Below are positions 165 through 35,635 of a stretch of DNA of 64,000 bases, piece by piece (position 1 is the first letter of the stretch; the number at the start of each line of letters is the position of its first letter). This DNA is from an uncultured Verrucomicrobiae bacterium (lineage in GTDB: Bacteria > Verrucomicrobiota > Verrucomicrobiia > Chthoniobacterales > UBA10450). Under the pieces are notes generated by a model. That model was not told where the DNA came from. It made no database searches and worked only from the letters and a program-made list of their open reading frames with translations. Location of the stretch: positions 1-64,000 of the forward strand of contig CAVYXA010000006.1 in NCBI GenBank assembly GCA_963772365.1. Reading direction: 5' to 3'. The position numbers and the translations under genes were made by a program.

Positions 165-220
165 TGGGTCGGCCGGGACTCGAACCCGGAACCAACCCCG
201 AAAGCGTTCGGGGCTGCTCT
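165..220 (-). repeat. 3' fragment of tRNA-Lys with anticodon arm replaced by hairpin CCCCGAAAGCGTTCGGGG
   Basis: TGGGTCGGCCGGGACTCGAACCCGGAACCAA is identical to 486-516, followed by an 18-nt hairpin, then CTGCTCT as in the tRNA. Confidence 0.9.
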
Positions 221-226
221 CTGAAA

Positions 227-475
227 TCAAACAGCGGACTGCAAGGCCAATACCGCGAGACCGGGATTCTTCTTTCGTTTCAACGCCAGCTCGAACTTTC
301 TCGCTTCGGCCATTGACGAGAATTCCTTCGAAGCGACTAGCTCAATTGCTCCACCCAGTCGACGGGTCGTATAGTTACTACCGCGCCGATGTTCTTCGAT
401 TCGACGAGCCAAGTTGTCGGTAGACCCGATGTAATGCCGGCCGGATTCGCCGCGTAACATATACACCCAAGCCAT
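227..475 (-). CDS. small stand-alone GIY-YIG nuclease
   Basis: WVYML...HYIGSTDNLARRIEEH...EARKFELALK motifs; 82 aa. Confidence 0.9.
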   Translation of the reverse strand: MAWVYMLRGESGRHYIGSTDNLARRIEEHRRGSNYTTRRLGGAIELVASKEFSSMAEARKFELALKRKKNPGLAVLALQSAV

Positions 476-485
476 AAGCGAAAAT

Positions 486-558
486 TGGGTCGGCCGGGAC
501 TCGAACCCGGAACCAACGCCTTAAAAGGGCGCTGCTCTACCGATTGAGCTACCGACCC
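486..558 (-). tRNA. tRNA-Lys(UUU), CCA not encoded
   Basis: Cloverleaf GGGTCGG/CCGACCC; anticodon arm GCGCC-CTTTTAA-GGCGT; T-loop GGTTCGAGTCC. Confidence 0.96.
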
Positions 559-588
559 GTGATTTCGATTTAGCGCATTTCTCGGTCA

Positions 589-641
589 GAACCAACCCCG
601 AAAGCTTTCGGGGCTGCTCTACCGAATTGAGCTACCGACCC
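589..641 (-). repeat. 5' fragment of tRNA-Lys with anticodon arm replaced by hairpin CCCCGAAAGCTTTCGGGG
   Basis: CTGCTCTACCGAATTGAGCTACCGACCC matches the tRNA 5' half (one extra A); 589-620 is a 31/32 direct repeat of 189-220. Confidence 0.9.
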
Positions 642-668
642 CCCGGTGGAGGTGTCACTTTCTGATGC

Positions 669-1352
669 TTGCATGATTTTTCAATATACAATGAGCGCCA
701 GCGCAAGGTGATCTCACACGAACATAAATGCATTTTTGTCGAGGTGCCCAAGACTGGGTCGACCAGTATTCGCGCGATCCTGGGAAAGGCCTGGCGGCCG
801 CATCTGAATCTGTGGCAGATCAAATTCCAGATGGAGAATTATTGGACCCGCTATGGCGGCAGGAAGAATCGGATCATGGAAGTAATTTATCTTATTTTAC
901 CAAAGGAACGTCGCCGCATAATCGGGCAAAAGCAGTTCGAGACCTATTTCAAATTCGGCCTTGTTCGAAACCCGTGGGACCGTGTGGTCTCGCTATACGA
1001 ACGCAATGAAGCCTTGCAACTCCGGAATCAAATGAGCTTCGAACAGTTCGTGGATTGGATCCAATACAGCAGCGCCACCTGCATTCATTCATCACCGCAC
1101 CGCTATCAACTGGATTGGTTTGTCGATCCTAATGGGAATCTGCTGGCCGATTTTATCGGCAAATTTGAAAGGCTTGAAGAAGACTGGGCCTTTGTGGCAC
1201 GAAAGCTCGGAGTCAGCGAGACATTGCCGCATCGCCGGGAAAATCCACGGGAACGGCATTACACGGAATATTACAATCCCCGGACACGGGACGTGATTGC
1301 CAAGAAGTTCAAGATCGACATCGATCGATTTGAATATGAGTTCGGCCGATAA
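669..1352 (+). CDS. sulfotransferase family 2 domain protein
   Basis: IFVEVPKTGSTS (5'-PSB loop) and VRNPWDRVVSLY (3'-PB); start may be near 708. Confidence 0.85.
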   Translation: MHDFSIYNERQRKVISHEHKCIFVEVPKTGSTSIRAILGKAWRPHLNLWQIKFQMENYWTRYGGRKNRIMEVIYLILPKERRRIIGQKQFETYFKFGLVRNPWDRVVSLYERNEALQLRNQMSFEQFVDWIQYSSATCIHSSPHRYQLDWFVDPNGNLLADFIGKFERLEEDWAFVARKLGVSETLPHRRENPRERHYTEYYNPRTRDVIAKKFKIDIDRFEYEFGR

Positions 1353-2126
1353 GATTCAGGCGATCGTCCTCAGCTTCGATCGACATCGCGCAATTACCGA
1401 TCACATGATCCTGCAATACGAACGGCTCTGGCCGGATCATCCATTTATTTTCATTGTTCCCTATCAGAAGCTCCAGCGATCCGACAGTGACCGTGTAAGA
1501 TACGTGAAGGCGCCCGGCGGAAAACCGTCAGATATTCCGTTTACAGTCCTGAAGCTGATTGCAGATCTCGACGATGAAGAGCTGGTTTATTGGTGCTCTG
1601 ACGACAAGTATCCGATTCAACTCATCTCCGACAAAATCGCGCGCCTGCTGAATTACATCCAGAACTCGCCAGATATTGCGGGGCTAATGTTTTGCCGTTG
1701 CCGGGCGACGCTGGACGAGCCTGAATTGACGCTTTATCCGGGCGAACGAATCACACCGGATGGCGACGTTCTGCTGGAACGCAGGGCGTGGTATCAGTTT
1801 TGGATCCATCAGTTCGTGCGTGTAAAAGTGCTTCGTCATTATTTTTCCGAACTGCCGGATCGACCTTGCCGAGCGCGAAAGCACTCGACGAATTTCGGGA
1901 AGAGATCGTAAAGCTCCCTGACCACCGATTATTTGTGACCAAGGAAAACCTCGCAGTGTTCGGCGAAAGCACGCAGCGCGGGATTATCACTCGAAATTGT
2001 TACGACAGCATCCGGCAAAGCGAACATTGCGTTGCCGGAGTGGTTTCGTCATCCCAATCGCGAACGGGTGACGCTGGGGAAATCTGTAGGATTCCGATCT
2101 ACAAGCTTTGTAGCGGCGGTCTATGA
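1336..2126 (+). CDS. hypothetical protein, possibly glycosyltransferase-like (frameshifted near 1860 and 2020)
   Basis: ORFs 1297-1911 and 1788-2126 join into one coherent protein; YWCSDDKYP motif; coupled to the upstream sulfotransferase. Confidence 0.55.
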
Positions 2127-2178
2127 CCGTCGCAAACTCCAGCGGCATGGATGGCGACGCTCACAGAGCGCGGCTACA
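2109..2178. repeat. GTAG-type REP-like element (TGTAGCGGCGGTCTATGACCGTCG family)
   Basis: Imperfect inverted repeat; related copies at 15483-15506, 27343-27418 and 34567-34590. Confidence 0.85.
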
Positions 2179-2815
2179 CCGGAACGTCGTAAAGGCGAGT
2201 ATCCAGTCTAACCAACGTGTAACCGAAACGTTCGATCTCGGCGGCGAACTTTTCTTTCACAATCTCGATTAGCTGATCGTCGTAATATTTGGAGTAATGC
2301 TGGCGGTCGGAGCGATTGTATTGCGGCAGAGGCGCTGGCGGAATGTCGATCTTGGCGCAAACAATACGGAAATCTTCCGGCAAATTCTCGAACCGCATGA
2401 TGTAATCCACATTGCCGAACGGGTCGGTTTCGTCTTTCTCCAAACGCAGATAATCCGCGAGCGATATCGCTTTCGAAACCATTTTTATGAATTCCTTCGC
2501 GGTCCCAAGCTCTGTCGTCCGGCGAGTCGGCCGAAAATAATAGGAGATCATTCGGTCCCATGGATTCCGAACACAAGTGAACTTGAAGAGCTGTCGAAAT
2601 TGTTCTTCCCCCAGTGCTGCTCGATATTCGGCGAGCGTGGAGTGTTTTTTGAGATTGTACTTCGGATTGCGCAGTCCGAAGCGTTCTACGCCATCCTGCT
2701 CGCGCCGCAGCGCCACGATTTCATCTTCGGAATAATCGCGCAGAATAGTCTGGATCGAGTTGCCGCCGGTGCGCGGCACATGAACGAAAAGAAAACGCTT
2801 TTGAAATGAGATCAT
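2174..2815 (-). CDS. sulfotransferase family 2 domain protein
   Basis: FLFVHVPRTGGNSI and VRNPWDRMISYY motifs. Confidence 0.85.
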   Translation of the reverse strand: MISFQKRFLFVHVPRTGGNSIQTILRDYSEDEIVALRREQDGVERFGLRNPKYNLKKHSTLAEYRAALGEEQFRQLFKFTCVRNPWDRMISYYFRPTRRTTELGTAKEFIKMVSKAISLADYLRLEKDETDPFGNVDYIMRFENLPEDFRIVCAKIDIPPAPLPQYNRSDRQHYSKYYDDQLIEIVKEKFAAEIERFGYTLVRLDTRLYDVPV

Positions 2816-2845
2816 GTGGCAGGCCCGTTCAAGAGCCTATTCTCA

Positions 2846-2937
2846 TGTCATGTTGAGCGAAGCGAAACATCTTTAATTATCGCTCTGGGACAGTGAATCT
2901 AAATGATCGGAGATTCTTCGCTTCGCTCAGAATGACA
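2846..2937. repeat. TGTCAT...ATGACA REP-like inverted repeat
   Basis: TGTCATGTTGAGCGAAGCGAAACATCT / AGATTCTTCGCTTCGCTCAGAATGACA; related copies at 4387-4478 and 31983-32074. Confidence 0.85.
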
Positions 2938-2956
2938 GTGACTGGATTGAGACGCT

Positions 2957-4392
2957 TCAAATCCTAAGCCTGTCCTGAGTTTTTTCCTGCCAACGGTTAA
3001 TTTCATCGCTACAGCGCGATACTACAGGCGCGTATTGTCGATCCTCGTAAAGATTTCGCGTTTCAAAAGGATCAGTCGTTCAAATTGTACAACTCGTTTA
3101 AGTCCTTATCCCGCAAGGCAAAGCTTCCAGCCATCGCTCGAAATCTCGGTGCGCGTCGATTCATCAATTGCACGCTTAATGACACGACGTGGCGCAAGCG
3201 ACGTTCCTTTCTTCACCTTGGTTCGGTTCGGCGCCCATTCGATAAAGATGCTTTCCGGCGGAGAATCTTCTCCGCGGATCAAGGGCAGCAAACTTTTGCC
3301 CTGACAGGAACTCGGTTGCGGTTTCCCGAGCAGGCTTAGCAAGGTGGGAATGAAATCGATCTGGCTTACCCGACGCGAGATCAATCTGCTTTGCCGTTGG
3401 TCGGGCAATCGAATCAGCCACGGGACGCGCACCGCTTCTTCAAACATCACTTCTTTCCCGAACAAATGATGCGCCCCCAGCATGTCGCCGTGATCGCTTG
3501 TATGCACTACGATCGTGTTGTCAGCGATGCCTGCGCGCGCGAGGCACGACAGGATTGCGCCGATGCTTCTATCGACAAGCGTTACCAATCCAAGGTAGCG
3601 CTGCTTCATTCCGCGATATTCTTCCAGGGTGATCCCAAAAAAGAATTGTGCAGGTAAACGTTTCCGGTCCCGGAGCGCTTCGGCCTGCTGCCATTCCCGC
3701 ATCAGACGATAGCGAAGCGGGATGTCGCTCTGTTCCGGCAGCGTAGCCGTTGGATCGAGATCGACTTCGCTGAGCGAATGTTCGTCATTAAATGGCCCGT
3801 TGTAGGGAGAGTGCGGTTCCTCAAACGCGACAACGAGAATGAACGGATCGCGCTTGTGGTTTTCGATAAATTCGCAGGCGTGTTTCTCGATGAATTCGGG
3901 CTTGGATAATTCGAGCGGCATATTGCTTACTGCGACAGTCGAAAACGAGCCGTCCGCTTCATCTGGGGTCATGCCCTTCGACAGCAAGAATTTGTGATAA
4001 TCGGTCCCGGGTCGATCGCGAACGGAGAGCCAATTCTCAAATCCGCGTTGCGGCGTTGTCTCATTCCCCAGATGCCATTTACCGAAATAAGCAGTGCGAT
4101 AATCACTATCGCCGACGAGCTCGGGCAGAACCCGAAACGGAATTCCGAGTTTGAGGCTGTTCCGGGTGCAACCAGTCGTATGCGGCCATAATCCGGTCAT
4201 CAGGGCCGATCGGGAAGGAACGCAGACCGGGTGCGTGACATAGGCGCGCTCAAAGACGACCGATTCAGTTGCCAGTTTCGTAAGGTTCGGCGAATGAACA
4301 TTTGTGCCGCCGAAACTGGCGATGGTGTCAGCACGCTGCTGGTCCGGCAGAAAAATGAGGAGATTTGGTTTTTGTTGTTTGCCTGTTGTCAT
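2957..4392 (-). CDS. Cys-type sulfatase (frameshifted near the C-terminus, about 3110-3070)
   Basis: CVPSRSALMTG formylglycine motif, GKWHLG, SDHGDMLG; C-terminal ELYNL...PFETRNL...DRLRI continues in other frames to a stop at 2957. Confidence 0.9.
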
Positions 4393-4478
4393 TCTGAGCG
4401 CAGCGAAGAATCTCCGATCATTTGTTCGGCCGGCGACAAGCCAACAATCGGAGATGTTTCGCTTCGCTCAACATGACA
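4387..4478. repeat. TGTCAT...ATGACA REP-like inverted repeat overlapping the sulfatase start codon
   Basis: TGTCATTCTGAGCGCAGCGAAGAATCT / AGATGTTTCGCTTCGCTCAACATGACA. Confidence 0.85.
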
Positions 4479-4596
4479 GAAACGAAAATACGCGGCCAGA
4501 GGGAAGCTGGCAGCTTCCTTTAGATTCAACCGCATGCAGGATGAAAGATAAATCTTTGCTGCGGCTGCGAAACATCAGATTTGTTTGCCAATAGCT

Positions 4597-5876
4597 ATGA
4601 GATGGATTGGAGTCTTGGTTTTTTCCCTTGGATTGGTGACCGTCGATCGATCGCGCGCGGCGGATTTTGATCTGGCGGCAAGCGCGATCAACGAACTGGC
4701 TGTCGATCTTCATCGCCAACTTGCTACAAATGATGACAATCTCTGCGTTTCGCCCTATTCCATTCAAAACGCGCTGGCCATGGCTTCCGCCGGAGCCGAC
4801 GGGGATACGCGTAGCGAGATGTCCCGCGTCTTGCATCTGCCGGATGAGGGCAATGCTATTCATGCTTCGTTCGCTTCGCTTCATCGTGCTCTTAGTGAAA
4901 TCGCCGCAAAGACCACTCAAAGTGCGAAACAATCCGGTGGACCGAGAGAACCGATTATACTGGCGGTGGCCAACCGTTTATTTGCCCAGAGCGGTTACGA
5001 TTTTCGTGATTCATTCCGTGCCCTGGTCAGGAAATTCTACGACGCACCATTGGAGCCGGTCGATTTCAAGAAAAATCCGGAGCGCGAGCGGCAACGCATC
5101 AATGAATGGGTTGCCAAACAAACGCGGGATCGGATTCGCAATTTAATCCCGGCGGGCGGCGTCACGGAAGCGACACGCCTGGTTCTGACCAACGCGATTT
5201 ATCTCAAAGCGCCCTGGGCTTCGCAATTTTCCGAGGGAGCAACCAAGCCCCGACCATTTCGTGTGCGCGGCAAAACCGTTGTCGATGTTCCGATGATGAA
5301 TGAACGCAAGAATCTTGGGTACGCGAAGCATGACGGATTTACCGTGGTCGGCGTGCCCTACACTGGTGGCGAACTTCAGTTTGTCGTCATTCTCCCTGAC
5401 AAAAACGACGGGTTGCACGCACTCGAACAGCAGGTGAACGCCGGAATGCTGGCCCAATGCGCGAAGCTTGAGGACCACGATGTCGATCTGTCGATGCCGA
5501 AATTCAAATTCGAGCCGCCAACCATCGCACTTGCCGCGACATTGAAAGCGCTGGGTATGCATTCCGCATTCGATGAACCGGCGGGCAGCGCCAATTTCGG
5601 GCGGATCGCTCCGCGAAAACCGAATGGCTACCTCTACCTTTCCCAGGTTTTTCACAAAACGTTTATCTCCGTGGATGAAAAAGGGACCGAAGCGGCTGCC
5701 GCCACAGCAGCAGCAATGGTGGCTGGCGCGCAGCGCCAGGACCCCCGCCGCCGCCACCGATCATTGTGAAAGTGGACCACCCGTTTCTTTACGCAGTTCA
5801 GCATGTTCCCAGCGGCACGTGCTTATTTCTTGGAGGTGTGACCGATCCGCGAGGAACGAGCGCTTCAGAAAAGTAA
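4597..5876 (+). CDS. secreted serpin (frameshift in the reactive-centre loop, about 5730-5760)
   Basis: SPYSI, LVLTNAIYLKAPW, hinge VDEKGTEAAAATA; C-terminal VKVDHPFLYAV...LFLGGVTDP in a shifted frame. Confidence 0.9.
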
Positions 5877-5926
5877 AAATCGATGAATTAAGTTGGCGGC
5901 TGTCACAGACGTCCTACAATGATCGC

Positions 5927-6136
5927 ATGAGTCTCTCTCCCAACGATCAAAAGGGTATCAGTGTGATCCTGCTGTACATGGCTCTTCTCTTCTTTTTGAT
6001 CGGAATGGCAGCGCGGATGAAGTCCGAGTTTCATTATCGTCAGGAAATCTCCGCTACCAGCCTCACCACGGCGGGAGTTCTTGTCGCCTTGGCTGTGATT
6101 ATCTTTCTATTCGCTAGAAGAAAGAAACAGCAATAG
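5927..6136 (+). CDS. small membrane protein (two TM helices)
   Basis: Two hydrophobic segments and a basic tail RRKKQQ. Confidence 0.55.
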   Translation: MSLSPNDQKGISVILLYMALLFFLIGMAARMKSEFHYRQEISATSLTTAGVLVALAVIIFLFARRKKQQ

Positions 6137-6168
6137 GCCCGGCTTTCGCAAAGACCGTGGAGTTTAGC

Positions 6169-6210
6169 AAAAAAAATCGGCGGCAACCGGGTTGCGATTC
6201 GCCGCCGATT
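6169..6210 (-). terminator. intrinsic terminator
   Basis: AATCGGCGGC/GCCGCCGATT stem followed by a T-tract on the minus strand. Confidence 0.7.
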
Positions 6211-6228
6211 CTTCGATGACTGTCGATC

Positions 6229-6612
6229 TTATTCGTCCATTGCGTCATGCATCTTTTTTCGAGCATCACGCATTTCCTGATGGGCCGTCTTCAGATCGTC
6301 GAGCTTCTTTTGCTGTTCAGGAGTAAGCAGCGGTCGAATCTTGGACATGGTGTCGTCCATGACGGCATGCGTCTTCTGCATTGCCTCCTGATGGATCGCA
6401 GTGATCTGGGGTTTGGCCTGATCGATGATCGGCTGGACCTTGGCCTGTTGATCGGCCGTCAGGTCGAGCGTTTGGGTCAAGTGCTCGAGACCAAACGTGC
6501 CTCGGTGTCCATGCCAGCCACCGCCACGATGACCGGGATTTGCCTGCACCAGGGCAAGACCGCCCAGCGCGATGGCTGCAGCGGCGGCAAGTGTAAGTAG
6601 GTTTCGTTTCAT
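6229..6612 (-). CDS. periplasmic Spy/CpxP-like (LTxxQ) protein
   Basis: Signal peptide; LTADQQ and LTPEQQ motifs. Confidence 0.8.
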   Translation of the reverse strand: MKRNLLTLAAAAAIALGGLALVQANPGHRGGGWHGHRGTFGLEHLTQTLDLTADQQAKVQPIIDQAKPQITAIHQEAMQKTHAVMDDTMSKIRPLLTPEQQKKLDDLKTAHQEMRDARKKMHDAMDE

Positions 6613-6670
6613 AGTTTGGTTTGTTTGTTTTTCTTTGAGCTCCGAACCATTTCGGGCTCGTTATAGCTGA

Positions 6671-6698
6671 TGACCGCGCGGCGGAGTTGTGGGTTACA
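6671..6698 (-). promoter_or_regulatory. putative ECF-sigma promoter TGTAAC-N16-CGGTCA
   Basis: Mirror of the plus-strand motif; upstream of the Spy/CpxP-like gene. Confidence 0.65.
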
Positions 6699-6704
6699 AA
6701 AAAA

Positions 6705-6732
6705 TGTAACCGCAACGCGTTCAGGCCGGTCT
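6705..6732 (+). promoter_or_regulatory. putative ECF-sigma autoregulatory promoter TGTAAC-N16-CGGTCT
   Basis: AAC -35 and GTC -10 pattern just upstream of the ECF sigma gene. Confidence 0.65.
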
Positions 6733-6763
6733 TGGTCAATAGTGTGGATGCGCTCTCGAATAC

Positions 6764-7336
6764 ATGGAAAATTCTGATGCCAGCGCGCTGGTGGAAGCCG
6801 CGTTGCGGCATGATGACGAAGCGGCTCGCGAGCTGGTTCGCCAGTTATATCCACTTGTGGCGAAAATGGTCCGCTCCCATCGGCCACGACGAACTTCTGA
6901 GGAGGATCTTTGCCAGATGATTTTTATTCGAATGTTCCAAAAACTGGACCAGTTTTCCGGGAAAGTGCCGCTCGAGCATTGGGTTTCGCGGATTGCGGTT
7001 AACACCTGCCTCAATCAAATCGAGGCCGAAAAAGTCCGCCCGGAATTGCGCCACGCCGATCTGACGGAGGAAGAACAGGCCGTCGTCGAAAATTTAAGTG
7101 CATCCCAAAACGAACTGGGACCCGACCGGAAGCTGGCTTCGCGGCAACTCGTCGAGCATTTAATGGATCTCTTGAAACCGGCGGAGCGATTGGTCATCGA
7201 TTTGCTTTACTTGCAGGGACGTTCTGTTGAAGAAATTCGAAACCTTACCGGCTTGAGTACCTCATTGATCAAAGTGCGGGCGTTTCGGGCACGGCGGAAG
7301 ATGAAGGCGCAATTTGAAAAAATTTCGGCGAAATAA
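6764..7336 (+). CDS. ECF RNA polymerase sigma factor
   Basis: Region 2 (EDLCQMIFIRMF, WVSRIAVNTC) and region 4 HTH (SVEEI...IKVRAFRAR). Confidence 0.9.
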   Translation: MENSDASALVEAALRHDDEAARELVRQLYPLVAKMVRSHRPRRTSEEDLCQMIFIRMFQKLDQFSGKVPLEHWVSRIAVNTCLNQIEAEKVRPELRHADLTEEEQAVVENLSASQNELGPDRKLASRQLVEHLMDLLKPAERLVIDLLYLQGRSVEEIRNLTGLSTSLIKVRAFRARRKMKAQFEKISAK

Positions 7337-7341
7337 CGTTT

Positions 7342-7638
7342 ATGAAGGAACCTCTGGATCGACTCTTTCGGTCGGCGGCAAAAGCGCGCGATGAAGCTCC
7401 GGTCTCGGCGCCATTTGGCTTCGACACGCGCGTAGTTGCTTTGTGGAGGTCCGGGCAACCGAATGGCGACAAAGGCCTTGGCCGTTTGCTACGAAGTGTT
7501 CTGGCAGTCTCTATCGCCGTGATCGTGCTGTCTTCATCGGCAATCGTTTACGAAATCAGTCAGGAACGCGAAAACAGCGAATCATTCAGTAATGCATTTG
7601 CCATCGCGGATTCCGCGATTCAATCCGAAGTTCCGTAA
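7342..7638 (+). CDS. putative membrane anti-sigma factor
   Basis: Single TM helix and PFGFDTRV motif; directly follows the ECF sigma gene. Confidence 0.6.
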   Translation: MKEPLDRLFRSAAKARDEAPVSAPFGFDTRVVALWRSGQPNGDKGLGRLLRSVLAVSIAVIVLSSSAIVYEISQERENSESFSNAFAIADSAIQSEVP

Positions 7639-8079: not shown

Positions 8080-8115
8080 CGGCAATTGTTCTGCGCGATT
8101 CCGGACCTGACCCCG

Positions 8116-8289
8116 CTACAGCACTTTCTTCCCCGCGGCGATTCCAGCGATCAAAAAGATCAGGAACAACACCACGAAAAGAAAGAACAGAAACTTCGCG
8201 ATGCCAGCAGCCGCAGCCGCAATACCGCCAAAACCAAAGATCGCAGCCACGATTGCAATCACTAAAAAAACAACAGCCCAATATAACAT
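8116..8289 (-). CDS. DUF1328 (YtjA-like) small membrane protein, 57 aa
   Basis: Translated by hand: [38 protein letters not shown]...; AAGGAGGT RBS; below the ORF-track cutoff. Confidence 0.9.
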
Positions 8290-21913: not shown

Positions 21914-22505
21914 ATGGGCGAAGCGACTGTGTTGCTGCTTGCTTCGACCTCACCCCGCCGCGCAGAATTACTCGTTCAGGCTGGTTTTGAATTTGAAGTC
22001 GTTTCGCCTGCGGCCAGGGAACGCGCCGATGTCGATCTTACGCTGCGCGAAGTGACATTGCTCAATGCGATCCGGAAAGGAATGCCGATCGCGCGTTCAC
22101 ATCCCGATCAGGTCGTACTCGCAGCCGACACTCTGGTAGCGCTGCACGATGAGGTAATCGGTAAGCCTGTCGATCTCAAGAATGCCGCCCGCATCCTTCG
22201 ACGCCTAAGCGGACAAACTCACGAAGTTTGTTCGGCTGTACTGAATATATCATCGTAGAACCGGACGTTCGACAGTGTTTCAGGAAATTTCCCACGTGCG
22301 CTTTTTCCGACTGAACGACGAATGGATCGAGAACTATTTCAGAAAAGTAAATCCGCTCGACAAGGCGGGTGCTTACGCCGCGCAACGAGAAGGCGCGGAC
22401 ATCATCGACAAGATTGAAGGCTCCTATTCGAATGTAGTCGGTTTGCCCATGGAAAAGACCGTTGCCGCGCTGGCTGCGTTCGGCATTCGACCGAAGAGTC
22501 GCTGA
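21914..22505 (+). CDS. maf: Maf-family nucleotide pyrophosphatase (frameshifted near 22250)
   Basis: LASTSPRR, AADTLV, GKP; second part DKAGAY...NVVGLP. Confidence 0.88.
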
Positions 22506-27304: not shown

Positions 27305-27342
27305 ACTTCTAGTTTGTAACGCAATTCGCCAAGAACTATTTG

Positions 27343-27418
27343 CTGTAGCGGCGCTCTATGAGCGTCGCTATCCTTAATGCGAGGTGAGTTTGCTACCGGT
27401 CACAGACCGGCGCTGCAG
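27343..27418. repeat. GTAG-type REP-like element
   Basis: CTGTAGCGGCGCTCTATGAGCGTCG ... GGTCACAGACCGGCGCTGCAG. Confidence 0.75.
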
Positions 27419-27534
27419 AGTCACTTTCGCGCCAGCAACTGCCGCAGAACGAAGGGGAGAATGCCTCCGTGTTTGTAATAATCGATCTCGATCGGTGTAT
27501 CGATCCGGAGCTTCACCGGCACCGATCGTTTTTC

Positions 27535-27564
27535 CCTGCCCGCCGTAGCCTTGGCGGAGGAGGG
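27535..27564. repeat. 30-nt element inserted in frame ([10 protein letters not shown])
   Basis: CCTGCCCGCCGTAGCCTTGGCGGAGGAGGG is absent from the other acnA copy. Confidence 0.75.
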
Positions 27565-27901
27565 TCCATCTTTGCCTTTGATCTCGAGCGTGAGTTGTTG
27601 TCCTGGTTGGATCGAGTCGGATAAGCCTGTGATCGAGAAGATCTCCGATCCGTCGAGCCCGAGAGATTGCGGATTGGTTCCCTCGGCGAATTGCAATGGC
27701 AACACGCCCATCCCGACGAGGTTCGATCGATGAATCCGTTCGTAACTAGCGGCGATCACTGCTTTGACGCCAAGAAGACGCGTTCCCTTCGCTGCCCAAT
27801 CGCGCGATGAGCCTGTTCCGTATTCGTGACCAGCGAGAATGACCAGAGGAATCTTTTCCTCCTGATATTTCATCGCGGCGTCGAAGATCGACATCTGGTC
27901 G

Positions 27902-27966
27902 CCTGTAGTGGCCGCTGTCTCAGCGGCAGACGCAGATTTGCCGCCGGGGACGGCGGCCTCTACAGG
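27902..27966. repeat. GTAG-type palindrome inside acnA-fragment coding sequence
   Basis: CCTGTAG...CTACAGG inverted repeat; same element at 29500-29570. Confidence 0.85.
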
Positions 27967-28251
27967 AAAATATTTCGTACTCCACCCTCGGTGCCGGGCA
28001 CCATCAGGTTTTTGATACGTACGTTTGCGAACGTGCCGCGTGTCATGACCAGATCATTTCCCCGGCGCGAGCCATAGCTGTTGAACTCCTGCGGTTGAAT
28101 CCCGTGCGAAATCAAGTACCGCCGCGCTCCGCCTTTATCGCCGAGGGCTCACCGGTTCAAATTCTACGTCGCCAGCAATTGACGTAGCATGTCCTGACGG
28201 TTATTGGCGGACGAGAACAGGCGGATTTGTCATGATTTGATAGATTTGATT

Positions 28252-28276
28252 TTGTGCACAATGTGCACAATACTCT
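28252..28276 (+). promoter_or_regulatory. tandem TGTGCACA palindromic operator and -10-like TACTCT
   Basis: TTGTGCACAA-TGTGCACAA-TACTCT ending 5 nt before the antitoxin ATG. Confidence 0.6.
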
Positions 28277-28281
28277 AAGAT

Positions 28282-28659
28282 ATGACCACGGCATACGTAT
28301 CCGGGCGCGTGCCCGCTCGATTCGAGCGGCTCGTCGCGAGGCAGGCGCGCGGCGCTAAGACTTCAAAGAGCGATCTGGTTGCGCGCTATGTCATTGAAAA
28401 GAGCCTTGAGACCGAGTTTCCCGGTATTTCCTTTCGCGATTCGCTTGCTGGTCGGGAGGCATATGTCTCCGGCCGTCGCGTCGCGATATGGGAAGTGGTC
28501 ACTGTTTATCAGGACACGAACTCTGTGCAAAAAACGGCACAGCATTTCGGCTGGCCATCGGTTGTGGTGAAGCGTGCCCTCGCTTACGCGAAAGCGTTTC
28601 CAGAGGAAGTGGAGCGAGCTCGCGAGGAAGAAACGAATGCCCGACCGGTTGTTGGCTGA
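28282..28659 (+). CDS. DUF433-domain antitoxin with N-terminal RHH-like region
   Basis: FPGISFRD...GRRVAIWEVV...ALAYAKAFPEEV. Confidence 0.8.
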   Translation: MTTAYVSGRVPARFERLVARQARGAKTSKSDLVARYVIEKSLETEFPGISFRDSLAGREAYVSGRRVAIWEVVTVYQDTNSVQKTAQHFGWPSVVVKRALAYAKAFPEEVERAREEETNARPVVG

Positions 28660-29017
28660 CGAGAACACGTCCCATCGATTTGTCTCGGCCTGCCGGCGCC
28701 TTGCCCCAAAGTTCCCCATCGATCACATCGCGGACTGGCAAGGAGGCTCATGGCTTGGCTTGGATGACGCCTCGTTGCTGATTTCATGCGCCGAGGCCAG
28801 GCTGATCCTGGTCGCATTTGATCGCGCGACGCTCGCATGGCACGCCGGGCAGTTGCTCCGTAGCGGCCATGATCACGGTGGGCTCATTCTCTTTCGCCGT
28901 ACCGTTCGCAGCAACGATTACGGTCAGCAGGCACGTTTGCTCACGCGGTTCTGGCTGCACGAGGCGACCGCTTGGGACTGGTTGAATCGCATCGTCTATT
29001 TACCCAAGCCGCCGTAA
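28637..29017 (+). CDS. DUF5615 / PIN-like toxin
   Basis: LLADEN, GLDDASLL, LVAFD, HGGLI; overlaps the DUF433 gene. Confidence 0.8.
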   Translation: MPDRLLADENTSHRFVSACRRLAPKFPIDHIADWQGGSWLGLDDASLLISCAEARLILVAFDRATLAWHAGQLLRSGHDHGGLILFRRTVRSNDYGQQARLLTRFWLHEATAWDWLNRIVYLPKPP

Positions 29018-29050
29018 AGCTCATTCCGGTGGCCGTGTCGCCCGGGTGAT

Positions 29051-31987
29051 CTATCGAGCCAGCAACTGCCGTAACACGAACGGCAAAATCCCGCCGTGCT
29101 TGTAGTAATCGATCTCGATCGGCGTATCGATGCGTAATTTCACCGGCACCGATTTCTTTTGGCCAGCGTTACTTTCGATCTCCAGCGTTACTTCCTGACC
29201 CGGTTGGATTTTGTCGGATAAGCCGGTGATCGAGAAACGTTTCCGAGCCGTCGAGTCCAAGCGATTGAGGATTGGTTCCCTCAGCGAACTGCAATGGCAA
29301 CACGCCCATTCCAACGAGGTTCGATCGATGAATCCGCTCGAAACTCGCCGCGACACAGCTTTCACACCCAACAGGCGCGTGCCTTTCGCAGCCCAATCGC
29401 GCGATGAACCGGTTCCGTATTCATGACCGGCGAGAATGACCAGAGGAGGTTTTCGTTTCTTGTATTTCATCGCTGCATCGAAGATCGACATCTGCTCGCC
29501 CTGTTGAAGGGGCCGCTGTCTCAGCGGCAGACGCAGATTTGCCGGCGGAGGGCACGGCGGCCTCTACAGGAAAATATTTCGTAACGCCACCTTCGGTTCC
29601 GGGCACCATCAGATTCTTGATCCGGACATTGGCGAATGTGCCGCGTGTCATTACCAGATCGTTCCCCCGGCGCGAACCGTAGCTGTTAAAATCCTGCGGC
29701 TGAACTCCGCGCGAAATCAAATATTGCCCCGCCGGCGATGTCGCTTTGATCGCGCCCGCCGGCGAAATGTGATCGGTCGTGACCGAGTCGCCGAAAATCC
29801 CCAGCGCTCTCGCGCCGATGATATTGTCGATCTTGCCAACTTCCATCGAGAAATCTTTGAAGAACGGCGGCTCGTGAATGTAATCGCTCTTTTCGTCCCA
29901 CTGATAAACTTCGCCGGTGCTCGACGGGATTTCGTTCCATTTCGGGTTTTGCTCGGCGAAATCGCGATAGAGCTTCCGGAAAATTTCCGGCTTAAGCGCG
30001 GATTGCATGGCTTCGCGGATTTCTTTCAAGTTCGGCCAGAGATCGCGGAGGAATGTATCCTTTCCATCCTTGTCCTTTCCGATCGGCTCTTTGGTGAGAT
30101 CGATATCGACGCGTCCCGCTAATGCGAACGCGACCACAAGCGGGGGCGACATGAGAAAGTTCGCTTTGATATTTTGATGCACGCGCGCTTCGAAGTTGCG
30201 ATTGCCAGAAAGCACGGAGGCCGCAATGAGATCGTTCTTATTGATCGCCTCTTCGATTCGCGGATGCAGCGGCCCGGAATTACCGATGCAAGTCGTGCAG
30301 CCATAACCGACCAAATTGAACCCGAGCTGATCGAGATATTTTTGCAGCCCAGTTTTGTTCAAATAATCGGAAACCACGCGCGAGCCGGGCGCGAGGGAAG
30401 TTTTCACCGCCGGATCGACATGCAGTCCGCGCTCCACTGCTTTTTTCGCGAGCAGTCCGGCTGCGAGCATCACGCTCGGATTACTGGTATTTGTACAACT
30501 CGTAATGGCGGCGATCAGCACGCTGCCGTGGCCGATTCGGCTTTGACCATGATGAAAGGGATCGGCAGCCGCGGTTTCGATTTCGCTTGCCGTATCCGGC
30601 GTCGGTCGGTTGGAAATCATTTCCAGCTTGTTCCGTGCTTCGCCCGTGTCGATATCCTCCAATCGCGTATCCGTTGAAGGCATGTCGCCGTCTTGCGGCG
30701 CCTGCCATTCAACTGGACCGGATATTTCGCGCTAAGATCGACATCGGCCTTTCCGTAACCGCCGTCTTTCACCGATTTTTTCATCAAGTCGCGAAAGGCG
30801 GTCCCGAGCTCGGGCAGGTTGATCCGATCCTGCGGTCGCTTCGGTCCGGCTACGCCCGGCTGCACATCGCCGAGGTTTAATTCCAGATCGACGCTGTAAT
30901 CGATTTCGCCTTTGCGCGGCATCCCGAACATTTTCTGAGCGCGGAAATAATTCTCGAACCCCGCGCATTGTTCATCGGATCGTCCGGTCGCTCGCAAGTA
31001 CGCGACTGATTCTTTATCGACAGGGAAAAATCCCATCGTCGCGCCGTATTCAGGCGACATGTTTCCGATGGTTGCCCGATCGGGAACTGGAAGGGATGCC
31101 GCACCTTCGCCGTAGAACTCGACAAACTTGCCGACCACTTTTTGCGCTCGCAGCATTTGAGTGATGTGCAGGACGAGATCGGTCGCGGTCACGCCTTCGC
31201 GCAATTGCCCGCTCAAGTGCACGCCAACGACTTCCGGTGTCAAAAAATAAACCGGCTGGCCTAACATGCCCGCTTCCGCTTCGATGCCTCCTACGCCCCA
31301 ACCGACCACGCCGAGCCCGTTGATCATCGTCGTATGCGAGTCGGTCCCCACGAGCGTGTCGGGGTAGAAGATGTTTGATGTTTGGTCTTTGATGTTTGAT
31401 GTGGTTGAGAGAACACCTTTCGCCAGGTACTCGAGGTTTACCTGGTGCACGATGCCGATGCCGGGCGGAATGAGTTGAAAGGTGCTGAAGGCCTGTTGAC
31501 CCCATTTCAAAAATTGATAGCGCTCCCGATTGCGTTTGAATTCCATTTCCAGATTCAATTGCAACGCGCGCGCCGAGCCAAAGAAATCGACTTGCACGGA
31601 GTGATCGACAATGAGATCGACCGGCACCAGCGGCTCAATGATTTTTGGATCGCCCCCGACACGTTTTACTGCGCTACGCATCGCCGCAAGATCGACAACC
31701 AGCGGCACGCCAGTGAAATCTTGGAGCACGATCCGCGCAACCACGAAAGGGATTTCTTCGTTAGCCGGCTTCTTGGCATTCCAGTTCGCCAGCGTCTCGA
31801 CATCTTTGCGCCGAATTCTTTTCCCATCGCAGTTTCGCAACACCGATTCGAGCACGATCCGAATGCTGACCGGCAACCGCGAAATTTTACCGATTCCTTG
31901 TTCCTCGAGCGCCGGCAATGAATGCAGAAACCCTTCGCGGCCGTTTCCGGCATCGAATTTCTTCAGAGTATTGAATTCGTCCGTCAT
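29051..31987 (-). CDS. acnA: aconitate hydratase A (several probable assembly frameshifts at about 30690, 29500, 29460, 29350, 29260)
   Basis: [50 protein letters not shown] spread over ORFs 30617-32044, 29421-30683 and 29051-29491. Confidence 0.93.
29500..29570. repeat. GTAG-type palindrome inside acnA coding sequence
   Basis: GGCCGCTGTCTCAGCGGCA...TGCCGGCGGAGGGCACGGCGGCCTCTACAGG. Confidence 0.8.
31370..31402. repeat. heptamer tandem repeat (GATGTTT)n inside acnA
   Basis: GATGTTT GATGTTT GGTCTTT GATGTTT GATGT encodes [11 protein letters not shown]. Confidence 0.75.
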
Positions 31988-32074
31988 TCTGAGCGTAGCG
32001 AAGCGGAGTCGAAGAATCCCGTGGCAATGCCTAGGGTCGTGCAACGGGAGGTCTCGACTTCGCTCGACATGACA
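31983..32074. repeat. GTCAT...ATGAC REP-like inverted repeat overlapping the acnA start codon
   Basis: GTCATTCTGAGCGTAGCGAAGCGGAGTCGAAGAATCCC ... TCGACTTCGCTCGACATGACA. Confidence 0.8.
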
Positions 32075-32078
32075 GTAG

Positions 32079-32573
32079 TTAGTTCAATTCCGCCAGCTTC
32101 GCTTTGATTTTGTCGAAATTCGGCAACTGCGTCGGATCATCGCTGCTCTCGGCGTATTGGATCACGCCTTTTTTATCGACGATGAACGCGGAGCGTTTGG
32201 CCACGCCACTCATGCCGAGATTTTTTTGCGGAAGAAATGCATCGTAGGCGACGCCGTAATCACGAGCGACTTTGTGTTCGTAATCGCTCAGCAGCGGCAC
32301 GGTGATATTTTCTTTTTTTGCCCAGGCTTCTTGCGCAAACGGGTTATCGCCGCTGATCCCATACACCGCGGCGTTGAGACCGATGTAAGCGTCGAAGTTC
32401 TGGCTGACGTCGCACATTTCGGTCGTGCAGACGCCGGTGAACGCCATCGGGAAAAAAAGCAGCACGGTATTTTTGCTGACGAAATTCTCGCTCAGCTTGA
32501 TCTGCTTTGGGCCCTCCGGGGTTTTGGTAGGCAATGAGAAATCTGGCGCTTTGGTTCCAACTGCAAGTGGCAT
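32079..32573 (-). CDS. peroxiredoxin (AhpC/TSA redoxin)
   Basis: [15 protein letters not shown]. Confidence 0.9.
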
Positions 32574-32656
32574 GATTGATCCTCCGGGTTGAGTTTAACG
32601 GGGGGAATTCACTATAGGATCGACAGCTTCTCGGTCAAAAGGTTTGCGTCGAATTT

Positions 32657-32730
32657 AGCCCAGGTTAACACGGATTTTCACAGACAATTTTGAAGGAACA
32701 TCTGTGTTTCATCTGTGTTCATCCGTGGCT
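32657..32730. repeat. imperfect inverted repeat built of (ATCTGTGTTC)-like units
   Basis: AACACGGATTTTCACAGA ... TCTGTGTTTCATCTGTGTTCATCCGTGGCT. Confidence 0.55.
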
Positions 32731-32745
32731 TACGATGCCTTTTCA

Positions 32746-33234
32746 ATGGAACTCTTCTGGTGGCTCGTCACGATCGTGTTTTTCGCCGTGGGCCTGATCG
32801 GCACCGTGCTGCCATTTTTGCCCGGCACGACCATTATTCTAGCTGCCGCAATCGTGCATCGCATCATGATAGGTCCTACAAAGAGCGTAAGCTGGGCAGT
32901 GATCGCTGTCCTGGTCCTGCTCACACTAGCGAGTTATGTGATCGATTTTCTCGCCGGCTATTTCGGAGCAAAATATTTTGGAGCCAGCGGTTGGGGAAAA
33001 TTTGGCGCCATCGCCGGCGCAATCATCGGAATCTTTTTCGGTTTGATTGGGTTGTTTGTCGGCCCGGTGATCGGCGCCATTGCCGGTGAATTCATTGCCG
33101 GTAAGAAAATGATCGACGCGGGACGCGCCGGCTGGGGCAGTTTACTGGGGAATCTCGCCGGCATGGTGAGCAAACTGCTCATCGGTCTTGCAATGATCGT
33201 AATTTTTTTCCTGACGGTACCGGCGCCCTTTTAG
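32746..33234 (+). CDS. DUF456 family membrane protein
   Basis: GLIGTVLPFLPGT, GAKYFGASGWG, GPVIGAIAGE. Confidence 0.85.
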   Translation: MELFWWLVTIVFFAVGLIGTVLPFLPGTTIILAAAIVHRIMIGPTKSVSWAVIAVLVLLTLASYVIDFLAGYFGAKYFGASGWGKFGAIAGAIIGIFFGLIGLFVGPVIGAIAGEFIAGKKMIDAGRAGWGSLLGNLAGMVSKLLIGLAMIVIFFLTVPAPF

Positions 33235-33241
33235 TTCAGGT

Positions 33242-33889
33242 GTGACAGAGCAATCAAACAAAGAACACGAGTTGGAGCCTATTCGAGGCTTGATCGAGAG
33301 ACGGCAGATGTATCAAGCCGTGCTCGCGCGTGTGGCGTTGATTGGCGGGACATTGTCGATCCTAACCGCTGCCCTGATTTATCTAAACAACGAGGTCAAG
33401 CGATTCCTGGATCGCCCAATCCAGGCGCGTAATTTTGCTTTTGCCTGGATCGATGTGCTGCTGCTCACGGCGATTGCCGCAGTGTTCTTCCTGGTGCGCG
33501 GATCGCGCACCAATGGCGACGGAATGGCTGCGGCCCGGCAGCGGCTTACTTTGCGAACAATTGCACCGTTCTGCCTGATTCCGGCTACGTTCACAGCATG
33601 GTTTTTCGCTACCGGGTACCTCGGCGCAGCCGAGCTTGATCTGGTCACGATTTGGATTTGTTCGTACGGATTAATGCTGCTCTCGACGTCATTTTTTGCG
33701 CCGCGTTCAGTCGAACTTCTCGGCTGGGCATCACTTCTGAGCGGTCTGGCCATTCCGTTAATGGCAGACAAGATCGACAACTGGGCTGGCAGCGTTCCAA
33801 CAATCCTTATGGGAACTGTCTTCGGCATTTACCACCTCGTGTTTGCCGCGTTGAACTGGGCGCGGAAATCGGTGTCCGCGCAGCAGTAA
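33242..33889 (+). CDS. hypothetical multi-pass membrane protein
   Basis: About six TM segments; FGIYHL near the C-terminus. Confidence 0.7.
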   Translation: MTEQSNKEHELEPIRGLIERRQMYQAVLARVALIGGTLSILTAALIYLNNEVKRFLDRPIQARNFAFAWIDVLLLTAIAAVFFLVRGSRTNGDGMAAARQRLTLRTIAPFCLIPATFTAWFFATGYLGAAELDLVTIWICSYGLMLLSTSFFAPRSVELLGWASLLSGLAIPLMADKIDNWAGSVPTILMGTVFGIYHLVFAALNWARKSVSAQQ

Positions 33890-33936
33890 CGGCGAAATCG
33901 CTGATGGATTGGTTTGCGAACTGCTCCAAAAAAGGA

Positions 33937-34182
33937 GTGCGCACATTCATTATTGTTCTGATCATTGCCGGGCTCGGTTATTTGTTTCTGGTTCAGAAAC
34001 AGCATCAAGCGTCACCGGAGGCCAAACCACCGGGGATCGAGTCGAACACGACGCCGGAACTGCTGACGCCGGCGCCCAGAGGTCAGGCGTCGAAATACAA
34101 CTTCATGAAACGCGCTCTTGACCGCGCTGCGGACGTTAGAGATCAGGCGCGCGCCCGGACCCAGGATGCACAGAATCCTTGA
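33937..34182 (+). CDS. hypothetical protein with N-terminal TM
   Basis: TM then NFMKRALDRA; start uncertain. Confidence 0.5.
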   Translation: MRTFIIVLIIAGLGYLFLVQKQHQASPEAKPPGIESNTTPELLTPAPRGQASKYNFMKRALDRAADVRDQARARTQDAQNP

Positions 34183-34228
34183 AGCCAGTCGGACTTTCGG
34201 ATTGTCGATCCTGTGATAGATTATTCGC

Positions 34229-34686
34229 CGATGGCAGATGATCGCCGGTGAATCGCAAGGTTCGCTGGAGGAAAGTCCGAACACCATACGGCAGCATGCC
34301 GCGTAGAATACGCGGGCGCCGCGGTTGAAAAATCGCGGCGACGGAAAGTGTCACAGAAAACAGACCGCCGGTTCTTTGAAACAGGAGACTGTAGGGGAAG
34401 CTGACAGCTTCCCTTCAAAAGCAGGCAAGGGTGAAAAGGCGAGGTAAGAGCTCACCGCTCGCGGAGTAATTCGCGAGGCACGAAAAACCCCCTGCGGTGC
34501 AAGACAAAACAGAGGAAGGACAGCCGGTCCGAGAAAGATCCTCGGGTATCGTCGCATCACGATGACTGTAGCGGCGGTCTATGACCGTCGACGGTGGTTA
34601 TCGGGCGGCTCGCAAAAGCGAGTTGAGATAAATGATCATCCTCCCGAAGAAATTCGGGACGACAGAATTCGGCTTATCGCCATCGA
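34229..34686 (+). ncRNA. rnpB: RNase P RNA (bacterial class A)
   Basis: GAGGAAAGTCCG, AGTGTCACAGAAAACAGACCGCC, AGGGTGAAAAGGCGAGGTAAGAGC, ACAGAATTCGGCTTAT; P1 CGATGGC/GCCATCG. Confidence 0.97.
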
Positions 34687-34692
34687 TAATAT

Positions 34693-34732
34693 GAAGGGCG
34701 CTTTCGGAAACGAAGGCGCCCTTCGCTTTTTT
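34693..34732 (+). terminator. rnpB intrinsic terminator
   Basis: GAAGGGCGCTTTCG-GAAA-CGAAGGCGCCCTTC followed by GCTTTTTT. Confidence 0.85.
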
Positions 34733-34791
34733 GGTGTGGGAATGTCATGAGTATTGCTCTGATAGCTGCTCTGCGGTATTTTACGCGTGTC

Positions 34792-35052
34792 ATGCCTGCG
34801 ACATTGGATGCTCCGAAGATTGCGGATCGATTGGAAAAGGCGCTTCGCGTGCAATCGGAGATCGATAAGCTACGCCGTAAGCTAGCGACACCGTTTGCAG
34901 GTGTGCCCAAAAATCTGCTCACTCGCAATCGCTATGGCCTGAACGCAGCCGAAATGGGCCAGATCGCGCGAAATCTACATGCCAGAGCGAAAGAAAAGAT
35001 CGCGTCCCGACGGAGTAAAGAGTTCCGCGGGTCGATCGAAGAAATCTTATAG
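34792..35052 (+). CDS. small hypothetical protein, probable antitoxin
   Basis: 86 aa; overlaps the start of a RelE-superfamily toxin gene. Confidence 0.55.
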   Translation: MPATLDAPKIADRLEKALRVQSEIDKLRRKLATPFAGVPKNLLTRNRYGLNAAEMGQIARNLHARAKEKIASRRSKEFRGSIEEIL

Positions 35053-35343
35053 CGTTCGGCTCGACGAGGATCTTTTGGCGGAACTCCGTCAGTGGCCAAA
35101 AACGGACCGTAAGCGCGTTGGAGAGATCATTCGGCGTGTGGAAGAAAATTCGGTCGACCTCATCTGCACTCGGGAGTGGGTATTCGCGACCTTTCACCCG
35201 GCCGCAAGCAGCTTCACGTCTACGAATGTCGCGTTAGCCGGCCATTGCGGCTGATATTCACACTGGAGCCGCAGTCACTTCTTTATTTTCATATGATCGG
35301 GACGCACGACGAAGTGCAGAAATTCCTAAGATCATTTCGCTAG
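34979..35343 (+). CDS. RelE/YafQ-superfamily toxin (1-nt frameshift near 35150; start uncertain)
   Basis: Joined reading ...RVEENFGRPHLHSGVGIRDL...VYECRVSRPLRLIF...HMIGTHDEVQKFL. Confidence 0.7.
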
Positions 35344-35550
35344 CCGACTTAACACATTCTCAAACGGAATCGTTTTTTCGTGGCGGCGACCGGCGATCAC
35401 GCCCAAATCGTGCAGGTCTTCCAGCAGCTCTTCGTATTCTTCGATTGGAAGAATAACCGCTTTTTTTTTGCCATTTTTCACGACGTATTCCGCCGCCGAT
35501 TCGCGCTCTCTCATCTCAAGCACGTTAGCGCCGGGCTTTCGCCGCGCCAA
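35332..35550 (-). CDS. orphan Phd/YefM-like antitoxin, possibly 5'-truncated
   Basis: YVVKNGKKKAVILPIEEYEELLEDLHDL motif. Confidence 0.65.
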   Translation of the reverse strand: MARRKPGANVLEMRERESAAEYVVKNGKKKAVILPIEEYEELLEDLHDLGVIAGRRHEKTIPFENVLSRLAK

Positions 35551-35564
35551 CTCTCCACTCGTTC

Positions 35565-35635
35565 ACGGAATTCGGGTTATCGCCATCTAAATATGAAGGT
35601 ATCAAGGACGCTTTCGGAAAGGCGCCCTTCGCTTT
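35565..35635 (+). repeat. degenerate direct copy of the rnpB 3' end plus terminator
   Basis: ACGGAATTCGGGTTATCGCCATCTAAATATGAAGG...CGCTTTCGGAAAGGCGCCCTTCGCTTT versus 34662-34729. Confidence 0.85.

Follow-up and report, generated by a model that had tools for sequence, protein, structure and literature searches.

How do small toxin-antitoxin (TA) and nuclease genes come to lie beside conserved bacterial genes when no recombinase accompanies them? The question is raised by the first 64 kb of contig C6 (CAVYXA010000006.1; these 64,000 nucleotides are called the window below) of an uncultured Verrucomicrobiae bacterium of the Chthoniobacterales, whose genome (GCA_963772365.1, here G000) comprises 3.35 Mb in six contigs with an estimated contamination of 1.95%. 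An earlier note on this DNA had described three loci in which a conserved gene (tRNA-Lys, acnA or rnpB) is followed by small nuclease or TA cargo and then by a second copy of the gene's own 3' end, and had suggested that one general route might lie behind all three. Self-alignment of the window confirmed that the three repeats are real and lie where they had been placed: 161-199 versus 482-520 for tRNA-Lys (39 nt, 95%), 27424-28127 versus 29051-29732 for acnA (713 columns, 80%) and 34662-34729 versus 35565-35635 for the rnpB 3' end and terminator (76 nt, 78%; alignment score 76 versus at most 26 in 500 shuffles). The reported lack of an integrase or transposase was upheld, as none was found among the 80 open reading frame (ORF) translations scanned and family scans of the genome placed no PF00589 or PF01797 match inside the window; serine recombinases were covered by the ORF scan alone. 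The gene labels held firmly for the GIY-YIG nuclease and, above the NCBIfam cut-off, for Phd/RelB, leaned on homologue names for RelE, and were weak for the DUF433/PIN pair. The interpretation as a whole is partly supported, and a route shared by the three window loci is not, acnA being a one-off, rnpB harbouring a locus-bound RelBE cassette and tRNA-Lys a cassette of its own. As argued below, acnA, rnpB and about twenty further layouts may well be scars of host-driven, integrase-free recombination of relatives' DNA through a single anchor.

Duplicated gene ends across the genome

Genes were called with a simple hexamer model, dispersed repeats were masked, and the ends of 2304 genes (coding sequences (CDSs) of at least 450 nt plus RNAs) were searched against their own flanks at a threshold of 40 bits, counting copies outside long CDSs. 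This genome-wide self-alignment, suggested with the original description, revealed that the layout is general: 3' ends are repeated downstream in direct orientation at 23 of the 2304 genes, versus 2 in the inverted control and 0 for mid-gene segments. It is not restricted to 3' ends as had been supposed, since the same scan detected the mirror image, 5' ends repeated upstream, 16 times in direct orientation (inverted, 5; mid-gene, 4). Some of the 23 and 16 cases are paralogue or insertion sequence (IS) repeats, and the off-side classes of the scan (9 and 10) consist of reciprocal matches and tandem segments. The hosts of duplicated ends include ispH, thrS, thiC, acnA, dehydrogenases and RNAs. 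With cargo named by Pfam and hosts by NCBIfam, the 3' cases comprise ispH with HicBA, thrS with HicAB, an aldehyde dehydrogenase with HicAB, icd/leuB with MazE/PIN and a multilayered thiC, and the 5' cases cas4/1 with Phd/PIN, an ECF sigma gene with HicA and a TPR gene with FitA/PIN. The layout recurs in relatives, among which G067 has an independent event at the same gene, icd/leuB, with different cargo.

An independent test started from the cargo: toxins were taken from family searches (at most the best 30 loci each), a bracket was defined as a repeat within 1.5 kb, and the toxin and GIY-YIG counts exclude four long-protein matches and five repeats of the same arrays. Direct repeats bracket 9 of 21 TA toxins compared to 5 of 150 random small genes (Fisher p 1.5e-6), and inverted repeats bracket 0 of 21. 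In four relatives the bracketed share is 7 of 28 for toxins and 12 of 19 for small GIY-YIG loci, 11 of these 12 having a tRNA in the locus. The predicted enrichment around TA and nuclease genes is therefore borne out, but cargo is not limited to them, as in two relatives (G011 and G018) a separate rnpB repeat, from an independent event, encloses a methyltransferase gene.

Two arrangements seen along the way are recorded here in their own right. Locus L061 (G000 C1:91000-97000) has a cas4/cas1-cas2 pair and repeat array between two TA-bearing duplications (ispH 3' and cas4/1 5'), and at L086, L093, L097 and L099 genes for PD-(D/E)XK and four-helix-bundle proteins are wedged between operon genes with 25-45 nt repeats.

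Divergence of the copies

The repeats measure 40-700 nt and the copies are 5-30% diverged, at synonymous sites. Across 20 copies (the second thiC copy lies outside the sum), mismatches at codon positions 1, 2 and 3 number 88, 71 and 275 (275 of 434 in third position; p 2e-37), with 0 stops in 902 codons; the acnA copy, read in frame around its inserts, gives 16, 9 and 77. Neutral decay after local duplication would spread mismatches evenly over the codon positions. The third-position bias and the lack of stops thus identify the copies, at the level of codon statistics, as ends of once-working orthologues.

A mosaic thiC gene and element J

The thiC gene shows where such an end may come from. 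Up to nt 1600 its identity to G078 and G001 is mostly 84-96%, in the working gene, and it drops to 70-77% further on; the last 400 nt of this gene are 84% identical to G081, which belongs to another genus, versus 73% to the same-genus G001 (127 of 201 genomes with a match). In trees, the 5' segment is closest to G078/G007 (91%), while the 3' segment and G081 separate from the rest with bootstrap 98 and the displaced copy is typical of the family. The switch in informative sites falls near nt 1630, and the copy is native-like after about nt 1700. By these alignments and trees, the working gene terminates in foreign 3' sequence, and the end that resembles the native one has been displaced downstream. 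The '3'-end replacement' proposed earlier is thus found at thiC, but with polarity reversed in G147 and G098, where it is the copy that is foreign, the end of the working gene being native (92% and 88% to the nearest genome). The locus carries several layers of cargo and copies, with one restriction endonuclease-like gene among them. A search for the same cargo behind the G081-type end found just a short common stretch, and that idea was rejected.

Displaced thiC copies are also associated with a small element, J, which is 81 nt long and non-coding, is inserted after GAA or GAG without target duplication, and ends in TCAA, like the right end of IS608/ISDra2. J lies 12-25 nt inside the displaced thiC copies of G000, G147, G098, G020 and G091, at five thiC positions; in G000 it heads the copy at L074:2171-2254 (C1:710671-710754), and the others are L441, L442, L444 and L460. 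A strict pattern for J has 15 matches in 7 of 101 genomes, and among 13 examined, four directly head a thiC copy, the remainder lying in tandem units or between genes. About 10 weak copies occur in this genome, some within repetitive extragenic palindromes (REPs) or genes, and J has no Rfam match. The G000 thiC copy contains three further inserts besides J.

The acnA locus

Full-length acnA (29051-31987, minus strand) has two single-base frameshifts near 30700 and 29350, which are probably long-read indels. Past its 3' end lie a putative RHH/DUF433-like antitoxin gene (28282-28659, plus strand; Atlas features 0.94-0.96, no Pfam match) and a putative DUF5615/PIN-like toxin gene (28637-29017, plus strand; Pfam E 4e-4, below cut-off), followed by the 3' copy (27421-28127, minus strand; about 83% identical in its core). 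That this cargo runs on the strand opposite to acnA had been missed. Inserted in the copy are a REP, which the full gene has as well, and a 30-nt palindrome (about 27535-27564); a GTAG-type REP with up to 18 distant matches (27339-27419) directly follows the copy.

This layout is found once. Among 141 genomes with a match (of 151), compared at genus level, a second acnA 3' end occurs in this genome alone, acnA being single in the 140 others bar G107, which has two matches on different contigs; acnA as a hotspot is rejected. No close match to the toxin turned up in 250 genomes of the family. In metagenomes, 80 loci (53 clusters) are homologous to the pair, and the toxin homologues are always paired with an antitoxin homologue where flank exists; acnA is present at none of the 80, and no bracket occurs at any of the 23 that have 500 nt or more of flank on both sides. 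The idea that the cassette hitchhikes on the acnA end fails on these counts, and the case appears to be a single event with a free-standing TA pair. No mosaic breakpoint is visible in acnA.

Hairpin inserts inside acnA (27905-27965, 29490-29560 and 27535-27564) are found at identical positions in other genera: the REP insert is shared by G067 (L103), and the 30-nt palindrome of the downstream copy by G092 (L102).

The rnpB locus

The class A rnpB gene (467 nt, 34226-34692, plus strand; 34226-34732 with terminator) is followed by a 101-aa ORF for a putative antitoxin (34747-35052, plus strand), to which no search assigned a family, a YafQ/RelE-like toxin gene (34979-35343, plus strand; frameshift near 35148), an orphan Phd/RelB antitoxin gene (35332-35523, minus strand) and the copy of the rnpB 3' end and terminator (35565-35635, plus strand). 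The toxin is named from homologues called YafQ/RelE; it has no Pfam or NCBIfam match, and the predicted structure of the RelE-like fragment (pLDDT 51) has no Foldseek match. Contrary to the layout first described, the insertion continues past the copy to 37394, with a RES-Xre pair outside the bracket (35634-36475, minus strand) as part of the accreted region before the ancestral neighbour, an aminotransferase gene (37395-38477).

The orphan antitoxin falls in a RelBE clade that occupies the rnpB 3' locus at 9 of the 11 best loci (one being the unpublished G014) and at none of the other 19, and close homologues of the antitoxin form RelBE pairs at this locus in other genera. The rnpB copy is present in 3 of the 9 (G000, G019 and G061), in three genera and at the same offset from the antitoxin start. 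From these two counts the cassette appears bound to the rnpB locus regardless of duplication. The comparison of filled and empty sites that had been called for found the site empty, at genus level, in G275, G007, G016 and G002. In trees compared for signs of horizontal transfer of the RelBE genes, the G019 and G061 cassettes pair (82%) and their neighbour genes do not; other nodes are weak. The duplication may give both transcription units a terminator.

As side observations, rnpB at 467 nt ranks with the longest of the family loci retrieved and contains REP-like inserts near 34389-34413 and 34567-34590, and broken ORFs together with the RES-Xre pair fill the rest of the gap to the ancestral neighbour (35634-37394), outside the repeat.

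A GIY-YIG cassette at tRNA-Lys

The intact tRNA-Lys(TTT) gene (486-558, minus strand), 165 bp from the contig end as a locus, is followed after 10 nt by a gene for an 82-aa single-domain GIY-YIG nuclease (227-475, minus strand; PF01541, 1.6e-14), whose PDB matches are UPF0213 proteins only and whose nearest titled relatives are from Chthoniobacterales/Verrucomicrobia. The displaced tRNA part (165-221, minus strand) begins where the nuclease gene stops, about 8 nt ahead of the anticodon arm, and comprises the D-arm 3' side, T arm and acceptor strand, with an 18-nt palindrome P (CCCCGAA-N4-TTCGGGG, 196-213) in place of the anticodon arm. Neither this extension of the copy to about 221 nor a 5'-half copy upstream (589-641, minus strand; P at 596-613) had been noticed before. 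The same P occurs in Lys and CAT-tRNA cassettes of relatives.

Homologues of the nuclease are present in 57 of 150 family genomes. Among the 66 distinct loci listed, 48 directly follow a tRNA (23 Lys-TTT, 23 CAT and 2 others), with a 3' copy at 37 and a 5' copy at 23; in several loci from Patescibacteria the layout is mirrored. In a tree of 83 nuclease sequences the clusters follow target tRNA and palindrome. The best 30 tRNA-Lys loci, drawn from 43 genomes that gave a match, comprise 11 filled sites, 17 without gene or copies (3 of which keep a relic start), 1 with the 5' copy alone and 1 masked. On this distribution the locus looks like a homing or Ssn-like element and is a separate, target-specific GIY-YIG cassette that probably promotes its own spread; a nuclease trigger is plausible here only. 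The filled allele retains an intact tRNA, and self-protection is therefore unexplained if the element homes.

Related units occur elsewhere in G000: at L062 (C1:376900-379200) five near-identical 321-bp units of GIY-YIG gene and half-tRNA stand behind a tRNA-Met and beside a tRNA-Asn GIY-YIG cassette, each having a palindrome of its own, and the tRNA-Lys palindrome stands alone at 12 places, replacing REP stem-loops or after tRNA 3' ends.

Other repeats and gene calls

GTAG-type and GTC-type REP families are both abundant (in the window at 2106-2178, 2846-2950, 4381-4482, 27339-27419 and 31982-32074), and 159 of 531 repeat intervals genome-wide lie within long predicted CDSs, some being repeat domains. 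Single-base shifts split maf (21914-22505), acnA and the yafQ-like gene; they are probably assembly errors and suggest a long-read assembly with residual indels.

Candidate routes

In the one-anchor reading that we favour, a piece of DNA from a relative, bearing the end of a conserved gene and an adjacent small gene, would recombine via a single homologous anchor, either by a single crossover with the circularised piece or by an anchor crossover combined with an illegitimate joint at the opposite end. The host gene would remain whole, often mosaic, and a second end would be left past the cargo. Such events would depend on RecA, take up DNA through natural transformation and might pass through a circular intermediate; TA cargo would be enriched because addiction prevents looping-out by the repeats. 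A single crossover at a variable position predicts both polarities. Both are observed, along with two diverged, selection-shaped ends, the mosaic thiC and empty sites in relatives. The genome has comEC and dprA, and the 10-mer AAGATCGACA occurs 1048 times, about 34-fold over Markov expectation, on both strands and in several frames. The word is common to family loci, with many copies in the window (for example 27889-27898), and is absent from 48.7 kb of other-family loci; cargo contains fewer copies than expected of the word and its two main variants (2 versus 11.7). It resembles a DNA uptake sequence and may serve in uptake.

Several observations weigh against this reading. Brackets are missing from 12 of 21 toxins here, 21 of 28 in the four relatives and all 23 homologues of the acnA pair from metagenomes; the majority of TA arrivals therefore leave no end-duplication scar or lose it. 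The uptake-like word is not enriched at affected gene ends (8 versus 5.8 expected), and the copies at thiC and tRNA genes start at a small hairpin element, which plain recombination does not predict. The polarity of the exchange could be read neither at acnA nor at thrS and icd, where the data are short or mixed, and the acnA ends are sisters in the tree, an outcome also expected of local duplication. The codon test used 20 copies hand-picked from the scans, the loci and their joints are known from assembled sequence, and the circle is hypothetical.

The joints themselves gave no common signature. No shared joint motif was found, REPs touch 0 of 21 cargo-side joints compared to 17% of intergenic windows, and none of 19 other copies has the geometry of short homology plus insert (all p at least 0.145). 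The proposal of a REP or hairpin at every joint is rejected. The copy start is fixed at rnpB in three genera and variable at protein genes, where divergence is 5-30%.

These data bear on the alternatives. That a GIY-YIG or Y1 (HUH) enzyme cuts single-stranded DNA (ssDNA) 5' of a hairpin at all loci, and thereby sets the end of the piece that circularises and then recombines, is rather unlikely. It would account for tRNA copies that start about 8 nt 5' of P, for P tracking nuclease clade and target tRNA, and for the position of J within displaced thiC copies in five genomes; SsnA cuts ssDNA upstream of its own hairpin (PMC11893778), and the genome has 9 Y1 matches. The 19 copies and 21 joints above nonetheless argue against it, and J may just accumulate in dead copies, as the three further inserts in the G000 copy illustrate. 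A wider version for Chthoniobacterales can be offered only as a speculation, and a doubtful one: small ssDNA nucleases would cut uptaken DNA just upstream of hairpins of their own (P at tRNAs, J at thiC, decayed elements elsewhere), a segment of hairpin, gene end and cargo would circularise and enter by a RecA-mediated single crossover, and TA genes, poor in the uptake sequence, would ride along on core genes rich in it, the tRNA GIY-YIG cassette being the autonomous form and a new class of homing element.

We regard as unlikely a site-specific integrase that acts in trans at att sites in gene ends, with its gene elsewhere or lost. The 3' ends of tRNA genes are classic att sites, the rnpB copy start is identical in three genera and the genome has 8 tyrosine recombinase matches, but more than 20 unrelated targets, repeats of 40-700 nt with synonymous divergence, variable thiC starts, the involvement of 5' ends and the lack of a common joint motif speak against it. 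The check for an integrase remnant likewise found none that explains the layout, the nearest tyrosine recombinase match being at least 13.8 kb from each of the 22 checked loci that share a contig with one. Local tandem duplication with partial deletion and neutral decay, after which TA genes insert into dead space, is quite improbable overall and largely refuted for coding cases by the third-position bias, the lack of stops and the foreign thiC end; it would fit the sister acnA ends, a TA pair that is free-standing elsewhere, and the copies that enclose no ORF (hepT and the first G020 thiC copy). A strain- or species-chimeric assembly might be suspected in a metagenome-type assembly with indel errors, but the tRNA-Lys layout stands in 11 of 30 best loci, the rnpB layout recurs in G019 and G061 at the same offset, the thiC and icd layouts occur in other genera, the contamination estimate is low, and a chimera would not favour TA cargo. 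It is therefore very improbable.

Comparison with known systems

The architecture is real, general and enriched in TA genes, and it is probably best read as a variant of one-anchor gene-end displacement. Arrival of chromosomal TA pairs without a mobile element is an open question, and 9 of the 21 toxins here lie in a readable scar. Since thiC shows an end swap of a working gene, the route can be tested through comparison and transformation assays; in this abundant soil family, core genes such as thiC are cross-genus mosaics, with consequences for marker phylogenies. The literature covered, to which most subscription papers and supplements do not belong, holds no account that we found of TA cassettes at duplicated housekeeping-gene ends, and describes neither the hairpin-marked tRNA GIY-YIG cassette nor the AAGATCGACA 10-mer.

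The principle itself is not new, having been described for restriction-modification (RM) genes and for Rhs and type VI secretion system (T6SS) tips. Insertion of RM genes can leave long duplications of the target, unaccompanied by any other mobile element (Nobusato 2000, cited in PMC3874152; Furuta 2010, PMC2853133; reviewed in PMC3874152). There too, addictive genes are flanked by long direct repeats of variable size (46 to about 420 bp) without other mobile genes, some repeats overlap gene 3' ends, and the species are mostly naturally competent. As in that class, the repeats here exceed 30 bp and are unique in the genome, the insert is below 20 kb and no mobility gene is present. The cargo differs, being type II TA or tiny nucleases with no RM system, at about 20 loci in one genome, and the repeats, 5-30% diverged at synonymous sites, are orthologue ends and not a fresh target duplication.

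In Rhs/T6SS displacement, for which recombination with circles was proposed to displace rhs ends (Jackson 2009, PMC2935791) and homology-facilitated illegitimate recombination has been invoked (Kirchberger 2017, PMC5361080; Touzain 2010, PMC2884548), an incoming 3' end with its neighbour gene replaces the resident end and pushes it downstream, and layers accumulate, as here at thiC, the only locus where a laterally acquired 3' end was found. There, however, the new tip is the polymorphic-toxin payload, whereas here the host is a housekeeping gene, its protein is scarcely changed and the payload is a passenger; none of the hosts is a polymorphic toxin with tip and immunity gene. Homology-facilitated illegitimate recombination resembles our cases in that one anchor and one illegitimate joint add foreign DNA in competent bacteria (PMC5361080, PMC2884548), and differs in that the duplication here needs a joint back inside the gene, or a circle. 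The layout also lacks the own or adjacent tyrosine or serine recombinase of integrative elements, the serine type being judged from the window ORF scan only. As a rule, homology-facilitated illegitimate recombination deletes recipient DNA.

Other systems are closer to the hairpin-bearing elements. J resembles palindrome-associated transposable elements (PATEs) and IS200-IS605-type miniatures (PMC3119063) in being short and non-coding without target duplication, but no cognate transposase was identified for it, and the accessible PATE account makes no link to gene-end duplication. Ssn nucleases (PMC11893778) are single-domain GIY-YIG proteins of about 80-95 aa with their own short flanking NTS/SRM hairpins, enzyme and hairpin co-varying; the window gene, too, encodes a single GIY-YIG domain of fewer than about 100 aa between hairpins, yet it sits in a tRNA gene, and its hairpin P lacks the CGTC tag, replaces the anticodon arm and is not SRM-type. 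The free-standing homing endonuclease SegB of phage T4 (PMC2330249) shares with it a GIY-YIG domain tied to tRNA genes, patchy presence with relics and a duplicated gene end, and a related 5' homing endonuclease case is known (PMC8393795). At tRNA-Lys the cassette is likewise target-specific and patchy, with relics and empty alleles. Fungal mitochondrial homing endonucleases that replace 3' ends also duplicate the end of the host gene. The tRNA-Lys cassette differs from SegB and the mitochondrial cases in its bacterial chromosomal setting, its catalytic domain alone and its hairpin-marked half-tRNAs on one or both sides. The tRNA nuclease cassette is distinct from, and more novel than, the gene-end layout, and it offers many small nuclease-hairpin pairs with predictable targets.

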